From: a phage
Strand: one strand, 5' to 3'
Sequence record: PZ583743.1
DNA length: 64,000 nucleotides
The translations under genes and the position numbers were made by a program. Positions 37,384 to 57,915 of the stretch are shown here, piece by piece. The notes under the pieces are model-generated. The model was not told the origin of the DNA. It saw nothing but the letters and a program-made list of their open reading frames with translations, and did no database searches. How positions within the stretch are numbered: position 1 is the first letter of the stretch; the number at the start of each line of letters is the position of its first letter.

Positions 37384-38723
<1,340 letters not shown>

Positions 38724-43133: not shown

Positions 43134-43496
43134 TTAAAAGAATTTAAATTTTTTCTTTGACCTTTTATTAAATGCATCTTGTAGTTGCATTGTAATACAT
43201 TTTTCTACATGAGGAGCTAACTCAGCTTTTCTTTCTTGGTCAAGAACAGCAAAGTCCATTACGACTTTTCCATCAACCCAATCTAATTTTGTCACATACA
43301 CAATGTGTGTAGAACCATCTTCTAGTTTAATGACAATCTCCTGGATAACATTTTCCATGGCAGATTTAATTATCTTAAGAGATTCATTAAAAAGACGTTC
43401 TTTTCTTTCTTCTTCCCCCTCCGAAGAGGGGGATTCGTCGATAATTTCTAGATCTAAATCTAAATCATCTTTATTCATTAAATTCTTCCATATCAC
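43134..43496 (-). CDS. 40: gp40-like protein (120 aa)
   Basis: Position between 41 and uvsX; size. Confidence 0.6.
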   Translation of the reverse strand: MIWKNLMNKDDLDLDLEIIDESPSSEGEEERKERLFNESLKIIKSAMENVIQEIVIKLEDGSTHIVYVTKLDWVDGKVVMDFAVLDQERKAELAPHVEKCITMQLQDAFNKRSKKKFKFF

Positions 43497-44652
43497 TTAA
43501 CTGATCTAGGTCAGTTTCTAAATCAGCTGCTGATTTACTTTTACTTTCTGGAGATTTAAATTTTTCAACCTTTGAGTTAATCAATTCATCAACTTCAGCT
43601 TCAACAATTTCATTACTATCAATAGCACCTAATTGATAAGCACGTTTAATAGCATCTCGGAATGGTTGATGCTTAAATAAAGGACCCCAGAATGTAGTGC
43701 AGTTGGTATCTTTTGCACGCCAAGATTTTTCTTCGCGAATCATCTCGCCTGTTTCTTCGTCAAGAAATTCACGAGCATACCAGCCATTTTTAGGTTTTAC
43801 TACAAATCCTAATTCAAGAGCCATATCTAACAATCCAGAATAAGGATCGATACCACCGTCAAATTTAACATCAATAAAGAATTTACTTTTTTCTTTAACG
43901 GTACGAGATTTTTCTACATTTAGAACAAATTGATACCCCTGAAGATCAGAACCATCTTTAATCTGACGCTTACCGATAATGAATACAGTATCAGCTGAAT
44001 ACATTACGCCTGTACCACCTGTCATCACGGTTTTACTAAACATTTCAATGGTTTCAATTGTATGGTTAACCGCAACACATGGAATATTTTTAATGCTAAA
44101 ATAAGGAGTAACAATACGGAATAATGACTTCAGTGATTTAGCACGAGTCATATCTGCCACAGATTTTTCATTCAAGGCATCTTCCGTTTCTTTCTTAGAA
44201 GCCATATTACCAATTGAGTCGATGAATACAATAACCTTTTCACCACGCTCAATAGCTTCAAGCTGATTCACCATATCAATTTTCAGTTGTTCAACTGACT
44301 GGATTGGCGTATGAATTACTCGTTCTGGGTCAACTCCCATGGATCGCAAATAAGCTGGAGTAATACCAAATTCGCTATCATAGAATAGACAAACTGCATC
44401 AGGATATTTGTTCAAATATGCCGCAACCATAGTCAAAGACATATTTGATTTAAAGTGTTTAGAAGGCCCTGCGAAAATAGTTAAACCGGACTGCATTCCA
44501 CCATCAATCGCACCGGAAATAGCGATATTAAGCATTGGAATTTTTGTACGGATTACATCCTTTTCATTAAAGAATTTAGATGTAGTCAGTTCAGCAGTCA
44601 TTTTAGAAGTGGAAGCTTTAATCAAACGGGATTTTAAATCTGCAATAGACAT
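43471..44652 (-). CDS. uvsX: UvsX recombinase (RecA-like)
   Basis: 393 aa; N-terminus MSIADLKSRLIKASTSK; Walker A GPSKHFKS. Confidence 0.9.
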   Translation of the reverse strand: MSIADLKSRLIKASTSKMTAELTTSKFFNEKDVIRTKIPMLNIAISGAIDGGMQSGLTIFAGPSKHFKSNMSLTMVAAYLNKYPDAVCLFYDSEFGITPAYLRSMGVDPERVIHTPIQSVEQLKIDMVNQLEAIERGEKVIVFIDSIGNMASKKETEDALNEKSVADMTRAKSLKSLFRIVTPYFSIKNIPCVAVNHTIETIEMFSKTVMTGGTGVMYSADTVFIIGKRQIKDGSDLQGYQFVLNVEKSRTVKEKSKFFIDVKFDGGIDPYSGLLDMALELGFVVKPKNGWYAREFLDEETGEMIREEKSWRAKDTNCTTFWGPLFKHQPFRDAIKRAYQLGAIDSNEIVEAEVDELINSKVEKFKSPESKSKSAADLETDLDQLSDMEEFNE

Positions 44653-44729: not shown

Positions 44730-45578
44730 TTAATCAACTGCTATTGGATGAATAGCATTAAACTTATGAAATGCTTCTGATTTTTCTTTACGCGAAACAC
44801 ACATGCGAAGAACCTTTAATGGCTCGTCTTCTTCACCCAACGATTTTCGTTTTTCAATATTCGATGTTTTCCAACGAGCTTGCTCTGGAAACTCTCTATT
44901 GATTTGCTCAAGCGCTCTATTATGTTTAGAATTACTACGAATTGAACTACATCCACCGGGAGCGTGTGATTTTCCAGATACAACTAGATATTTGAACAAG
45001 GCCAAATGCGGATAACCTTGATTAATTAAATTGAGAAATGCATACATATCTTCGCATAAATCAATTTTTCCATACCCAATTTGTTCTGTCGTAAGTTTTC
45101 CGAGGTCATACCATGTATTCGTGAATCCATATGAGTTTTCACGATAATTACCCCAAGATGAAGTAATTTTAAAAATTGGTAGACGAGCATGACCGTGATA
45201 ATACCCGCAATCCATGGCATCTTCAACATATTGAATCAATTCATAGAACTGTTCACGAGTTAATTGATTAATTTTATCTACACGCCGTTTATCGTCTCTC
45301 TTTCGTATTGAACTCATACGAATAGTAGTATCATCATCAATCATCCAGATTCGTTGACCTGCATACATATCAGTAATTGCTTTACGAGTACCAGCAATTC
45401 CATTAACATCATCAGGAATAGTTATAATTTTAGCTCTAGACCCATAAGCGTCATAATAAGCTTTTTCTTCGTGTTTACGTACTACAATATGAGGTTCATA
45501 ATCAGTTGGAAACATATCAAGGGCAGAAACTGCCCCTACGCGTTGATAACTTGGAATTACGAATTGAATCATTTCCAC
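44730..45578 (-). CDS. GT-A fold glycosyltransferase, probable beta-glucosyl-HMC alpha-glucosyltransferase (T2/T6 type)
   Basis: 282 aa; DxD-like motif MIDDD; occupies the uvsX-42 slot where T4 has the 351-aa beta-gt. Confidence 0.6.
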   Translation of the reverse strand: MEMIQFVIPSYQRVGAVSALDMFPTDYEPHIVVRKHEEKAYYDAYGSRAKIITIPDDVNGIAGTRKAITDMYAGQRIWMIDDDTTIRMSSIRKRDDKRRVDKINQLTREQFYELIQYVEDAMDCGYYHGHARLPIFKITSSWGNYRENSYGFTNTWYDLGKLTTEQIGYGKIDLCEDMYAFLNLINQGYPHLALFKYLVVSGKSHAPGGCSSIRSNSKHNRALEQINREFPEQARWKTSNIEKRKSLGEEDEPLKVLRMCVSRKEKSEAFHKFNAIHPIAVD

Positions 45579-46309
45579 TCACCGTTATAATCTTTTTTCG
45601 CAATATGAATTTCGCCAGTTTTCCACCAATGGTCAACCAAATAAAAATGACGGGAATACACATGAAGGCTCCCGACATTCCATATAATGGAACCTGCTTT
45701 ATACTGACGAGTTGAATCACCTGCATTCAAATCAGATACTAATTTATCTAGTACATATTTTTGCCATGCATAATCATTACGGAATCCGAAGACCACGTCA
45801 TTTGAACGCATGTTAACCACTGCATTAATTTTCTTATCACGAATCAGGTACTGTACTGTATTAGTACACATGAAATCCGACATGCCATCTTTATTGTAGT
45901 CAAACTGCATGGATGGACGAGTATAAATCATGATACCGCGTCGAGAATCAGGATTTTGACCAAGTTCAGCTAAACACATATCATACTGGGCATAGTTATC
46001 TTCTGACCAGATGGCCCAACCATAATTCGAGTTAATTTCGCCTTTAGAAGATGCTACCTGCTGCCAAATCTTCGGCGTTTCACCTGGAATATCTTTAACA
46101 AACAAACTTTGAGACTTATACCATTCAAGTTCACGCTGAATGTATTCATCATTAAGAGCGCCAAAAATAAAAGGTTCATCTGCTACAAATGATGCACCAA
46201 TAATTTCAATAGTTTTAACACCGGTTTTATCAATTACGAAATCTTTTTCCTTTAATGCAAGACCCAAATCAAGACGGATTTCTTCAACTGTCATATAATC
46301 GTTAATCAT
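45569..46309 (-). CDS. 42: gp42 dCMP hydroxymethylase
   Basis: 246 aa as in T4; thymidylate-synthase-like fold region. Confidence 0.9.
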   Translation of the reverse strand: MINDYMTVEEIRLDLGLALKEKDFVIDKTGVKTIEIIGASFVADEPFIFGALNDEYIQRELEWYKSQSLFVKDIPGETPKIWQQVASSKGEINSNYGWAIWSEDNYAQYDMCLAELGQNPDSRRGIMIYTRPSMQFDYNKDGMSDFMCTNTVQYLIRDKKINAVVNMRSNDVVFGFRNDYAWQKYVLDKLVSDLNAGDSTRQYKAGSIIWNVGSLHVYSRHFYLVDHWWKTGEIHIAKKDYNGEWK

Positions 46310-46316
46310 TTAAACC

Positions 46317-46466
46317 TCAATTGATGCATTCATATTTAATTTGTAACAGTAATAAACCCCAACCTAAAATAATAGTTGGAATCATAAGAGGAACCGTTAC
46401 ACTATAGTATATACTTATTATAATCATCAAGATTAAAAGCAACACTGCTATAATTTTGCTTTTCAT
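46317..46466 (-). CDS. Small membrane protein (49 aa) between imm and 42
   Basis: Manual translation MKSKIIAVLLLILMIIISIYYSV...; overlaps imm stop. Confidence 0.45.
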   Translation of the reverse strand: MKSKIIAVLLLILMIIISIYYSVTVPLMIPTIILGWGLLLLQIKYECIN

Positions 46467-46721: not shown

Positions 46722-47102
46722 TCACTTAGTCAAATTTTTTACACATGAATTATAAGAATTTACTACATACTCCATCGGAGCATTTTTACCAGTACGCCAT
46801 TGATAATTATTAGCCCAATTTGCCCAAAGTTCAGCGCAGTAGTTTTCAATTTTTTCTTCGCGTGTAATTACATCCGAATTACGATATGCTTGAGCAGATT
46901 CATCTGGACGAATAGCCTCGTCAAAATTCGCCTGCATTTGTTCTACTGTCTGTTTTGGAGCTTCTTTATAACACTTGACATTAGGATTATAAAATTTGCT
47001 TGAACAGTTTACAATTTTTCCTACATCAGACTGATTTACTACCGGTCCTTGAGCTACACAGCCAGTAAGACCCAATGCAATAACCAAAATAGCGATTTTC
47101 AT
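46722..47102 (-). CDS. Putative lipoprotein (126 aa from ATG at 47102)
   Basis: MKIAILVIALGLTGC signal peptide and lipobox; ORF-track start is further upstream. Confidence 0.55.
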   Translation of the reverse strand: MKIAILVIALGLTGCVAQGPVVNQSDVGKIVNCSSKFYNPNVKCYKEAPKQTVEQMQANFDEAIRPDESAQAYRNSDVITREEKIENYCAELWANWANNYQWRTGKNAPMEYVVNSYNSCVKNLTK

Positions 47103-47134
47103 TTCATTCTCCAAATCCGCATCAGTTGATAGTT

Positions 47135-47164
47135 GTATAGTACCATAGAAGAACAGTCTTGTAA
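47135..47164 (-). promoter_or_regulatory. Early promoter (repeated cassette)
   Basis: Plus-strand gtatagtacc...gtaaac. Confidence 0.55.
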
Positions 47165-47248
47165 ACAGTTTTGTGAAAAAATTTTTAATGAATTCCAGGG
47201 GTCCAGAAACATCTGTTTTTCCTAAGTATAGATTTATATTACTTGTAT

Positions 47249-47270
47249 GAAAAAGGGACCCGGAGGTCCC
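47249..47270 (-). terminator. Rho-independent terminator after gene 43 (GGGACC-UCCG-GGUCCC + U-run)
   Basis: Read directly; 13 nt downstream of gene 43 stop. Confidence 0.7.
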
Positions 47271-47283
47271 TAGATTTATTCTA

Positions 47284-49980
47284 TCAGCCAAACAGGAAGT
47301 CTAACGAGGCTTTTTCTTCATAGTCCATACCCGCTGACTCACACATACCCGCAAGCGGTTTAACAAACGATTTTTGGAACAAAGTTGAGTAATCAATCCA
47401 AGACAGTACATCAGAACGAATTTCTTTTGGAAGTTCCGTACCCGATGGCCAAGCAATGCACTTGTCACCAAATGGATTTCCCTCACGTAATGGAAGAACC
47501 ATTACTTTATTTCCATCCAAAATTGGAGCTACACCTAAACCGCTAACAGCTCGACGATAAGTTAGCACCCCACGAATGTGGAACGGGCATTTAAATCCTG
47601 GCCAACCTTTATCGTCATATTTCGCTATATCGTTCGCAGTTTTTACTTCAGCAATAACTTTATAGTCAAGTTGACGATATTCTTTCTCAAAGTTCTTATA
47701 GTATTCTTGGACAGACTCTTCACCTTCCTGAAGAATGCGACGAATACTTTCTTCGAGAGCTTCTTGTACTGCTTTTGGTGTTGAACTCTGCTGAGTTTCC
47801 ATACCCATGATTTTTAGATGTGGTTCAGCAAATCGTTTATCTTCCATATCATAAACGTTCAGAGCATAACGTTTTTTCGCTTTCCAAAATCCACCAACAC
47901 CCTTTGAACCAAGCGGAGGACAAGAAATAGCTTCACGGTCCATATGCATCAGATGCTCGCGGTTATTCATATAATCACATAACTCACGATATGCAACATC
48001 AATCATAGGTTCCATCTTTTTCTTACCGAACTGATTCATGAATTCAACTAAATCATTTTGTTCTTTAAAGCGGTCAAGACCTACTTTTTCAATAACTTTA
48101 TCTACACAAACATATACAGAATCAGTATCACCCGCTGCGATGAAATCTTCGCCATTAGTTCCACACACCTTATTCAAGTATTCATTAATTTTACGAGCAA
48201 TCCACTGAATACCAACTTGACCAAAAATTGTGATAGCAGTAGCATTTCGCAAATCATAATAACGGAAATGAATATTACCAAGAGCACCATAAAGACTGTT
48301 GATAAGAATTTTACGGTTTAGCTGATTTGTGTTAGCAAGAGTAGCTGCTTTTTCACATTCTTCAATCAAACTATTAAGAACAGATTCGGTGTAATTCGAT
48401 AATTCATTTAAGAAATCATCATTGAACTTAACATATCGTTCAACTTCTGGTTTAGTTGAACAAGACCCTGCACCTTTCATAATAATCTTTTTAATAGCTT
48501 CGGCATTCATTTCTTCAGCGAACATTTTCTTTTTCCAATCTTTACGCTGGAAAAATACTTTAGCGATTTCCTTTGGAATGATACCTTCTTGATGCTTATC
48601 ATACATCCATCCATTCGGAGAACAAGAATATTCATCGCTTGGCTTAGGAGCTGTTCCTGCGATATATTCATGAATTGGATGAACTTTGAACTGTCCACGA
48701 ATAGTTTCAGGACTAATGTTAACCTGACGAATAATGCTCGGATACAGAGACGTCAAGTCAAAACTCATAATGTATCGACGGGCAATCGGTTTAGGTTCAA
48801 ACACAAATGCACCTGGAAAACTCTGTTTAACGTGCGAACCTTGTTGAGGAATAACCTTATGTTCACCTTTCAATGAGTTAAAAATAATAGCATCCCAAGT
48901 TTTAATAGGACTCATTACACCAGAAAAAGGCATTTTAGCGTAATAAGACATACTTAAAACTAGATCGATAAACCCGCGAATTTTATCAATTGCTTGAACT
49001 GATTCTACGTCAATAATGTTATAACTAATGTATCGTTGATGATTAGTCTCACGAAGTTTATTAATAGGACCATCATATGGTAATTTACCTTTTTTGGTTT
49101 CATGTTGAGCAACTGATTCCAAAGAGAATGATGGCAAATTAGTAAATGCGAATTTCTTGTACAAATCTAAATAATCAAGAATAGATACGCCATCAATAGA
49201 ATAAATTTCTTTGCTACCGTACATATTTTGAATTAGTTTAGATTTTACTCGACCGATTGGAGAGAAGCGTTTCATACTACGTTCGCCGAGAACCATTTTA
49301 ACACGATTCATGATATACGGAACGTCAAATCCCTCAATATTCCAACCGGTAAAAATAGCAGGTCGTTTCTGTTCCCAGAGATTAATATATTCCATGAGCA
49401 TATCACGCTCATTATCAAATGGCATATAAATTACTCGGTCAAGAATTTCTTGAGGAACTTCATCACCACCTTCACAGTCAAGTTTAGCAGCTAACTTTGC
49501 ATCCCATTTTGATACTGAACCGTACATTGAATTCAACAAATCAAAGACGTAAAAACGGTCGTCAATTGAATCATAATGAGTGATAGCATCAATTTCATAT
49601 TCTGCTTTCATTGGGTCAGGAAATTTATCACCAGTAACCTCAATGTCACAGTTAGCTACACGAACAAATTTTCGGTCATAAACAATTTCTGAACCATACG
49701 TATCACTGATATAAGCGAGTTTAAAATCGTTCATACCGAGAGCTTCGAGACCGATGTCTTCCATTCGCTTCATCCAATCTCGTGCATCTTTCATTGATGG
49801 AAATTTTTGAGGAGCGCAGTTTTTACCGTAAATGTCTTTGTATTTTGATTCTTCCTTACAATGCCTAAACATAGTCGGAAGATATTCTACTTCGCGAGTA
49901 CGTTCCTTTCCATTTTCATCAATATAACGTTCAACAATATTATTTCCGACTGTTTCGATAGAGATATAAAATTCTTTCAT
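47284..49980 (-). CDS. 43: gp43 DNA polymerase (family B)
   Basis: 898 aa as in T4; N-terminus MKEFYISIETVGNNIVERYIDENGKERTREVEYLP. Confidence 0.95.
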   Translation of the reverse strand: MKEFYISIETVGNNIVERYIDENGKERTREVEYLPTMFRHCKEESKYKDIYGKNCAPQKFPSMKDARDWMKRMEDIGLEALGMNDFKLAYISDTYGSEIVYDRKFVRVANCDIEVTGDKFPDPMKAEYEIDAITHYDSIDDRFYVFDLLNSMYGSVSKWDAKLAAKLDCEGGDEVPQEILDRVIYMPFDNERDMLMEYINLWEQKRPAIFTGWNIEGFDVPYIMNRVKMVLGERSMKRFSPIGRVKSKLIQNMYGSKEIYSIDGVSILDYLDLYKKFAFTNLPSFSLESVAQHETKKGKLPYDGPINKLRETNHQRYISYNIIDVESVQAIDKIRGFIDLVLSMSYYAKMPFSGVMSPIKTWDAIIFNSLKGEHKVIPQQGSHVKQSFPGAFVFEPKPIARRYIMSFDLTSLYPSIIRQVNISPETIRGQFKVHPIHEYIAGTAPKPSDEYSCSPNGWMYDKHQEGIIPKEIAKVFFQRKDWKKKMFAEEMNAEAIKKIIMKGAGSCSTKPEVERYVKFNDDFLNELSNYTESVLNSLIEECEKAATLANTNQLNRKILINSLYGALGNIHFRYYDLRNATAITIFGQVGIQWIARKINEYLNKVCGTNGEDFIAAGDTDSVYVCVDKVIEKVGLDRFKEQNDLVEFMNQFGKKKMEPMIDVAYRELCDYMNNREHLMHMDREAISCPPLGSKGVGGFWKAKKRYALNVYDMEDKRFAEPHLKIMGMETQQSSTPKAVQEALEESIRRILQEGEESVQEYYKNFEKEYRQLDYKVIAEVKTANDIAKYDDKGWPGFKCPFHIRGVLTYRRAVSGLGVAPILDGNKVMVLPLREGNPFGDKCIAWPSGTELPKEIRSDVLSWIDYSTLFQKSFVKPLAGMCESAGMDYEEKASLDFLFG

Positions 49981-56712: not shown

Positions 56713-57915
56713 TTATTTTGTAATAATGTCAAACTGTTCTTTAAAGCAGAAGCTTGAATCTTGATGCTGATACAAAAATTCATATGCTTTTTCTCGCTCA
56801 CGGTCGTAAAGAGCTCGATCAGATGACAATTCTTTAATACGTTCAAATGTTGATTCCATGTCATTTTCATCAAACCAAATGATACCGCTATCATGTGAGG
56901 TCAAAGGAGTATTATCAACACGGAATTTTAAATTATCACCCGTTGATTTCCAGAAAACAGGAATTGTACCGCAAGCACCTAATTCAAGATGAGTATATTC
57001 GAGTGAGCGTTGTAAGTATTTCTGGTTAAGTTTACTCAACTGATATCCAAAGCCAGATTTACTCATTCGTTCAAGCATTTCACTATTAATATAACAATCT
57101 AGGATTTGTGCCGGTTGATTCGGCGCGAGATTCATTTTATCAATCTCACGATTACCGTAATATTCATACGGAATACCTTTTTCCTTAATTGCAATAAAAG
57201 CAGGGGAACGTTCAAGACCTTCCATTACAGTGGATTTACCGGCAGGTTTTAAGAATTTTTCATGAAAATCAAACATCTGATAAAAACCCTTCCATGTAGT
57301 CGTACGACCAATCCAACGGTTGATGTTCATGTTAATTTCAGAAACATCTTTCCAATAAGTTGACCGAACCTTCACAATATCCATAGGAGGCTGAAAGTTA
57401 TATACTGTCGGTGCTTCTTCAATATCATCAAACAGAGAAACAGTTTCTGGATACCATTCTTTCATCAGAACTTTATTAAAATCACCATTATCAGAATGGC
57501 TAAAAATAACATCAGCTCGACGAACAGTTTCTTCTAATCCCAAATTTCGACGCAAAGAAAGAACAGAATGATCATGCTGATAAACTACAACACGAATAGA
57601 AGGTTTAATATTATCTAAAAGTTTTTTATAGTTATTAATCGTGGCTTCTTGAACGGAAGTAGCAGGAACAGAATTAATAATTAAAATATCACAATCATTA
57701 ATCAGTTTAAGTGCTTTATCGTATTCTTTAGCTAAAATAACTGGAATTGAAAATGATTTGTGGTCATGAGAACTTGTACGAGTAAATGATTTATCTTTAG
57801 CATAAACTAGAGTTACTTCATGGCCATTTTTAATGAACCAATCACGCTGCTCAAGAGAAAATTTAGTTACACCACAACCTTCAAGACCTCGAGCCATAAA
57901 AATGCATACTTTCAT
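56713..57915 (-). CDS. a-gt: Alpha-glucosyltransferase
   Basis: 400 aa as in T4; N-terminus MKVCIFMARGLEGCGVTKFSLEQRDWFIKNGHEV. Confidence 0.9.
   Translation of the reverse strand: MKVCIFMARGLEGCGVTKFSLEQRDWFIKNGHEVTLVYAKDKSFTRTSSHDHKSFSIPVILAKEYDKALKLINDCDILIINSVPATSVQEATINNYKKLLDNIKPSIRVVVYQHDHSVLSLRRNLGLEETVRRADVIFSHSDNGDFNKVLMKEWYPETVSLFDDIEEAPTVYNFQPPMDIVKVRSTYWKDVSEINMNINRWIGRTTTWKGFYQMFDFHEKFLKPAGKSTVMEGLERSPAFIAIKEKGIPYEYYGNREIDKMNLAPNQPAQILDCYINSEMLERMSKSGFGYQLSKLNQKYLQRSLEYTHLELGACGTIPVFWKSTGDNLKFRVDNTPLTSHDSGIIWFDENDMESTFERIKELSSDRALYDREREKAYEFLYQHQDSSFCFKEQFDIITK

Follow-up and report, generated by a model that had tools for sequence, protein, structure and literature searches.

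In phage T4, the slot between uvsX and gene 42 is filled by a 351-aa beta-glucosyltransferase gene (beta-gt), adjoined by the homing endonuclease gene segA. The T4 enzyme takes glucose from UDP-glucose and attaches it in beta linkage to DNA, at the bare hydroxyl of hmC. The phage DNA analysed here (record PZ583743.1; the whole 64,000-nucleotide stretch is referred to as the window) carries another glycosyltransferase gene in the equivalent place, in a gene order that is common to the window, T2, T6, slur03 and BGP. Which enzyme does this gene encode, and which form of DNA modification does it predict? We conclude, with high confidence, that the open reading frame (ORF) encodes a beta-glucosyl-HMC-alpha-glucosyltransferase of the T2/T6 type (ba-gt, also named ggt or TAGT), acting in the gentiobiosyl-hmC pathway proposed below.

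The ORF listing of the window contains a 282-aa, GTG-initiated ORF on the minus strand (44730..45578), which includes the peptide IWMIDDDTTI. A preliminary description of the locus had reported an ORF of this length between uvsX and gene 42, in the slot where T4 has its 351-aa beta-gt; comparison with the T4 locus bears out the ORF, its slot and the T4 occupant, and only the length probably needs correction. Two codons downstream of the GTG at 45578 lies an ATG (45572..45570), the third ORF codon, which overlaps the TGA stop of gene 42 as ATGA (45569..45572, minus strand). In T2, slur03, BGP, RB14, NR1, Some and Solly, the annotated coding sequence is likewise 843 nt long (280 aa), with the identical 4-nt overlap. 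Given the overlap and the matching annotation in relatives, the GTG start was dropped, and the protein is most likely 280 rather than 282 aa long, encoded at 44730..45572 (minus strand; TAA stop at 44732..44730). The gene is flanked by a uvsX homologue (43471..44652; Pfam T4_UVSX_C, E=4.7e-39) and, directly upstream, by gene 42 (45569..46309, minus strand), a dCMP hydroxymethylase gene with the thymidylate-synthase fold (Pfam Thymidylat_synt, E=4.6e-16) that is syntenic with gene 42 of T4, T2 and T6.

Gene 42 and ba-gt probably share a transcript and are translationally coupled, as the ATGA overlap suggests. A consensus scan for a promoter of its own returned 13 promoter-like sites, against 9.8 ± 3.0 in shuffled sequence, and thus no excess. 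The sole terminator-like hairpin found by scanning (GGGGCAG-TTT-CTGCCCT; 9 bp, G+C-rich, followed by a T-rich stretch; 45518..45538, minus strand) lies inside ba-gt codons 12-18, about 35 nt past the start codon. T2 and T6 have the identical hairpin, and a terminator is annotated there in the DalCa record; the 106 nt around it fold no better than shuffled sequences (z=-1.36). Conceivably, the hairpin acts as an attenuator between ba-gt and gene 42. The G+C content of ba-gt (0.358) matches that of the window (0.35), and this comparison gives no signal of horizontal acquisition, and hence no sign of a recent foreign origin.

Several lines of evidence identify the family. In a profile search, residues 2-277 match PHROG 842, annotated as ‘beta-glucosyl-HMC-alpha-glucosyltransferase’, at E=5.3e-88, and residues 5-209 match Pfam PF20691 (TAGT, TET-associated glycosyltransferase) over positions 2-205 of the 205-position model with 39.3 bits (gathering cut-off 27.5 bits); no NCBIfam family matches the protein. 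Over 280 aa, its identity is 97% to the T2 ggt protein and 96% to that of T6, and 278 of 280 residues (99%) are shared with BGP_052 of phage vB_Eco_BGP. Megablast with the gene retrieved 480 phage genome records at no less than 90% nucleotide identity, nearly all from Tequatrovirus (phages of Escherichia, Shigella, Yersinia and Salmonella) and many carrying the enzyme name; together with the PHROG match, these records show that the ORF is not a chance one. The wider TAGT family comprises 2143 representatives at E<=1e-3 in a full HMMER search, which also supplied the deep alignment (a word-index homologue search gave 11 matches). The proposal, made in the preliminary description, that this is the T2/T6 enzyme is thus well founded in both identity and family name. 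It also withstands the comparison that could have overturned it: BLASTP against T4 beta-gt gave E=3.9, no similarity, and PF09198 was not matched, so that a T4 beta-gt homologue was rejected as a candidate for this ORF. Across the whole 64-kb window, tblastn with T4 beta-gt found no homologue below E=1.

The protein was assigned to the GT-A glycosyltransferases in the preliminary description, with a DxD-type motif in IWMIDDDTTI, and both assignments agree with the predicted structure. The confident AlphaFold model (mean pLDDT 95) has GT-A (GT2-like) glycosyltransferases as its only fold matches, and no GT-B structure is among the top ones; as modelled, ba-gt is a single-domain, Rossmann-like alpha/beta/alpha transferase of the GT-A (GT2-like) type. 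The motif, D79-D80-D81 (GAT GAT GAT; 45330..45338, minus strand), is apparent from sequence, conservation and model. It comes where the fourth beta-strand ends, directly after strand 74-78 (DSSP on the model). In an alignment of 125 homologues (17-97% identity), D80 never varies, and at least 90% of the sequences keep D79 and D81. By analogy, D79-D81 is the presumed site for a divalent metal and the diphosphate of UDP-glucose. The other invariant residues in these 125 homologues are R11, D175, G186 and G207. R11 (CGC; 45540..45542, minus strand) belongs to an IPSYxR motif, with which beta-strand 1 ends. In the model, helix 174-184 opens at its N-terminus with the pair E174-D175 (GAA GAT; 45048..45053, minus strand), which is reminiscent of the ‘TED’ motif known from GT2 enzymes; D175 does not vary in the family, and at least 90% of close homologues keep E174. 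The GT2-like fold and the beta linkage of the known product make D175 a candidate for the catalytic base of an inverting GT2-like transfer.

By sequence, the protein does not fall within GT2: Pfam Glycos_transf_2 gave no match at E<=1, and a single-sequence search of solved structures gave none. With the 125-sequence profile, the best PDB match to a GT2-like enzyme was 9jma, in which an LDDDD segment aligns with D79-D81, at a weak and non-significant E=0.09. The resemblance of ba-gt to GT2, as seen in the model, is structural only.

The acceptor of such an enzyme is made by genes of the same window, as a DNA alpha-glucosyltransferase gene (alpha-gt, 400 aa) is present at 56713..57915 (minus strand; Pfam PF11440 AGT, E=2e-259), in a position syntenic with the annotated alpha-glucosyltransferase of slur03. 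In the proposed pathway, gp42 would make hydroxymethyl-dCMP, which would be incorporated into phage DNA; the product of alpha-gt, encoded about 11 kb away, would place an alpha-linked glucose on a fraction of the hmC; and ba-gt would add a second glucose, beta-1,6 to the first, from host UDP-glucose, yielding gentiobiosyl-hmC. In this last step D79-D81 would bind the metal together with the diphosphate of the UDP-sugar, and E174/D175 would serve as the base in an inverting transfer that forms the beta linkage. Genetic evidence from T6 supports this assignment, in that deletion of ba-gt leaves only alpha-glucosyl-hmC in the DNA (PMC11078745).

What this pathway yields in virion DNA is best judged from relatives. 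In BGP, Geo and EL, HPLC/MS gave hmC, alpha-glucosyl-hmC and alpha-gentiobiosyl-hmC at about 1:2:2, the gentiobiosyl share in BGP being about 40%, and no beta-glucosyl-hmC (PMC13390438). By analogy with these three phages, we predict a ratio of about 1:2:2 for the window phage. This ratio is a prediction only, as near-identical enzymes convert their substrate to very different extents. The expectation in the preliminary description of a hypermodification pattern different from that of T4 is in line with the published nucleoside analysis of BGP (PMC13390438), whose enzyme is the one that shares 278 of 280 residues. The finding thus predicts hmC, alpha-glucosyl-hmC and gentiobiosyl-hmC here, as opposed to the mixture of alpha- and beta-monoglucosyl-hmC of T4.

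The range of conversion is illustrated by T2 and T6, with gentiobiosyl shares of about 5% and about 72%, respectively, and an enzyme 97% identical to that of T2 might be expected to be equally weak. In that case, the DNA of the window phage would be essentially alpha-monoglucosylated, with at most 5% gentiobiosyl-hmC, and would differ from T4 mainly in lacking beta-glucosyl-hmC. We consider this highly improbable. A comparison of 11 ba-gt sequences, including those of phages with measured DNA, shows that the T2 enzyme has two specific changes, R11H (at the family-invariant arginine) and P251S, whereas the window enzyme has R11 and P251; moreover, the window carries the BGP/Geo allele, for which a gentiobiosyl-hmC share of about 40% was measured (PMC13390438). 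R11H is itself a candidate explanation, from sequence, for the low gentiobiosyl content of T2 relative to T6, a difference known for a long time. In the public T2 records MH751506 (2286-3128 of locus L003) and AP018813 (2283-3125 of locus L007), ba-gt differs from the RB14 consensus only at R11H and P251S. Of 447 matching records, only SV76 and seven records of T2 itself have exactly the 5' sequence of the T2 gene.

Two alleles can be told apart in the same comparison. At residues 89, 95, 97, 101, 202 and 203, the window, BGP and Geo have I, K, R, I, S and H, and the measured DNA of this group (BGP, Geo and EL) is the approximately 1:2:2 mixture. The other sequences have M, R, C, V, A and Q at these residues: QOTSP, NR1, Some, Solly and T6, in which alpha-glucosyl-hmC is almost fully converted; RB14 and Bas44; and T2, with its two additional changes. 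There are further differences: the window enzyme has K33 (seen in none of the other ten sequences) and I50 where that of BGP has E33 and V50, and it is without Y40N, D55G and R106H of the T6 enzyme. The six allele differences cluster in a basic hairpin past the DxD motif (residues 82-101) and beside the invariant G206-G207 loop. Among phages with measured DNA, the I/K/R/I/S/H allele is restricted to the BGP/Geo group, in which about half of the alpha-glucosyl-hmC stays unconverted. It is conceivable, although we think it unlikely, that the allele itself causes partial conversion, as a natural ‘tuning’ variant; the correlation between allele and conversion is confounded with phylogeny, since it sets two closely related phages against five. 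If true, a tuning allele would produce a genome of mixed mono- and di-glucosyl forms, a possible bet-hedge against form-specific defences.

A second alternative is that this TAGT has another specificity, acting on hmC or on beta-glucosyl-hmC, or using another sugar donor. The family is large, as its 2143 representatives show, and its members are found with alpha-GT, with beta-GT or alone (PMC13216743), which suggests varied specificities. For the window enzyme, however, a change is hardly to be expected at 96-99% identity to the enzymes of phages in which gentiobiosyl-hmC has been measured, the DNA of its relatives is without beta-glucosyl-hmC (PMC13390438), and the window has alpha-gt and lacks beta-gt; the chance of a different specificity is therefore very slight. 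That the gene is a positional relic or an inactive occupant of the variable uvsX-42 slot might be proposed from two public T6 records with apparent ba-gt lesions, by which loss is evidently tolerated in the laboratory, but the window ORF is intact over its full length, keeps every family-invariant residue and retains its ATGA-coupled start, so that we give this reading practically no weight. The T6 lesions are odd in their own right, T6 being the archetypal gentiobiosyl phage. In MH550421 (about 2949-2953 of locus L002), a CAG to TAG change creates an amber codon at ba-gt codon 10, and the protein is annotated from M20 (261 aa); in AP018814 (2135-2974 of locus L005), the GATGATGAT (DDD) motif is one Asp codon short, leaving 279 aa. 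These may be laboratory-stock mutations or sequencing errors.

With the T2/T6-type activity as the preferred reading, the consequences for host defence can be set out from published work. The preliminary description had inferred a different sensitivity to type IV restriction, and this is not supported by the literature, in which GmrSD and BrxU cut all glucosylated forms: GmrSD targets alpha-glucosyl, beta-glucosyl and gentiobiosyl DNA (PMC13216743), and BrxU cut all modifications tested (PMC13390438). The documented gain from the second glucose is escape from Brig1 and BapA. Brig1 is an alpha-glucosyl-specific DNA glycosylase, to which T6 deleted for ba-gt is more sensitive (PMC11078745), and BapA is a glucosyl hydrolase, of which T6 delta-g-gt DNA becomes a substrate (bioRxiv 10.64898/2026.02.25.707755). 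Knowledge of the modification pattern thus helps to predict sensitivity to Brig1, BapA/Brig3, GmrSD or BrxU, and it guides the choice of enzymes for cutting or sequencing the phage DNA.

The surrounding genes place the window phage beside BGP. A Dam-type N6-adenine methyltransferase gene (37384..38163, minus strand; PF02086, E=6.5e-51) abuts a gene for a 186-aa restriction-enzyme-like protein (38163..38723, minus strand) that is 100% identical to BGP_065 and has sub-threshold similarity to the DpnII (E=0.0045) and BanI (E=0.009) restriction endonucleases. This is, to judge by sequence, an apparent methylase plus nuclease-like pair in a lytic phage, and a pair of Dam and restriction-enzyme-like genes is described as specific to, and a mark of, the Geo/EL/BGP group of the Durham collection (PMC13390438). 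The neighbourhood in BGP resembles that in the window, including this pair, and Geo shares the six-residue allele of the window. The region from imm.1 to gene 43 is short in the window, as in T4 and T6, and longer in BGP; an extra ORF of about 240 nt lies between these genes in T2, slur03 and BGP, and the window is without it.

Two small genes near the locus deserve mention. A strongly hydrophobic 49-aa ORF (46317..46466, minus strand) occupies the 153-nt ‘gap’ that separates imm from gene 42; its ATG overlaps the imm stop as ATGA, and it probably encodes a real small membrane protein. The ORF is conserved in T4 (2228-2377 of locus L001); it is named gp42.1 in RB14 and ‘Phage protein’ in BGP and QOTSP, and is absent from the annotation of T4, T2, T6 and slur03. 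The counterpart of T2/T6 imm.1 (46722..47291, minus strand) is a 189-aa, TTG-initiated ORF in which MKIAILVIALGLTGC comes after an internal Met; this is a signal of the lipoprotein type and has an L-T-G-C lipobox, on account of which imm.1 is probably a lipoprotein. The name ‘iduronate sulfatase’, given to imm.1 in the T4 RefSeq record, looks like a mis-annotation.

The ba-gt gene of the window is an already known textbook gene in its usual T4-like place, and no new biology follows from it. Winkler and Rüger reportedly cloned the genes of T2 and T6 in 1993. The genetics and the product of the enzyme have been published, and so has its fold, which was assigned to GT-A in 2026. As cited in PMC13216743, the activity was described in the early 1960s, by Kornberg and colleagues in 1961 and by Kuno and Lehman in 1962. 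In Tequatrovirus, alpha-GT with TAGT is the common arrangement, and the T4-type combination of alpha-gt and beta-gt is the rare one, occurring in only 6 of 753 genomes (PMC13216743). To treat T4 as the reference state is therefore a misleading framing; alpha-gt with TAGT is the norm of the genus.

Among known systems, T2 and T6 are the closest in organization, with a ba-gt gene of the same 280-aa length in the same uvsX-42 position, the same ATGA overlap, and, as in the window, an alpha-gt and no beta-gt; the T2/T6/RB14 allele differs at the six residues given above. The beta-gt of T4 (PF09198, CAZy GT63) occupies the equivalent slot by gene 42 and has no sequence similarity to the window enzyme; its fold is GT-B, whereas that of the window enzyme is modelled as GT-A. 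The presence of ba-gt in this slot is a non-homologous replacement and not a variant of beta-gt, and the acceptors differ as well, T4 beta-gt using the bare hmC hydroxyl and ba-gt the 6-OH of an alpha-glucose that is already attached. The inverting GT2-like GT-A transferases (TarS, TarP, WrtF, the AvpGT/PglI-like 9jma and the catalytic domain of BcsA) share 8-16% identity with ba-gt, and, in contrast to their lipid, teichoic acid or glycan acceptors, that of ba-gt is a DNA-bound glucose.
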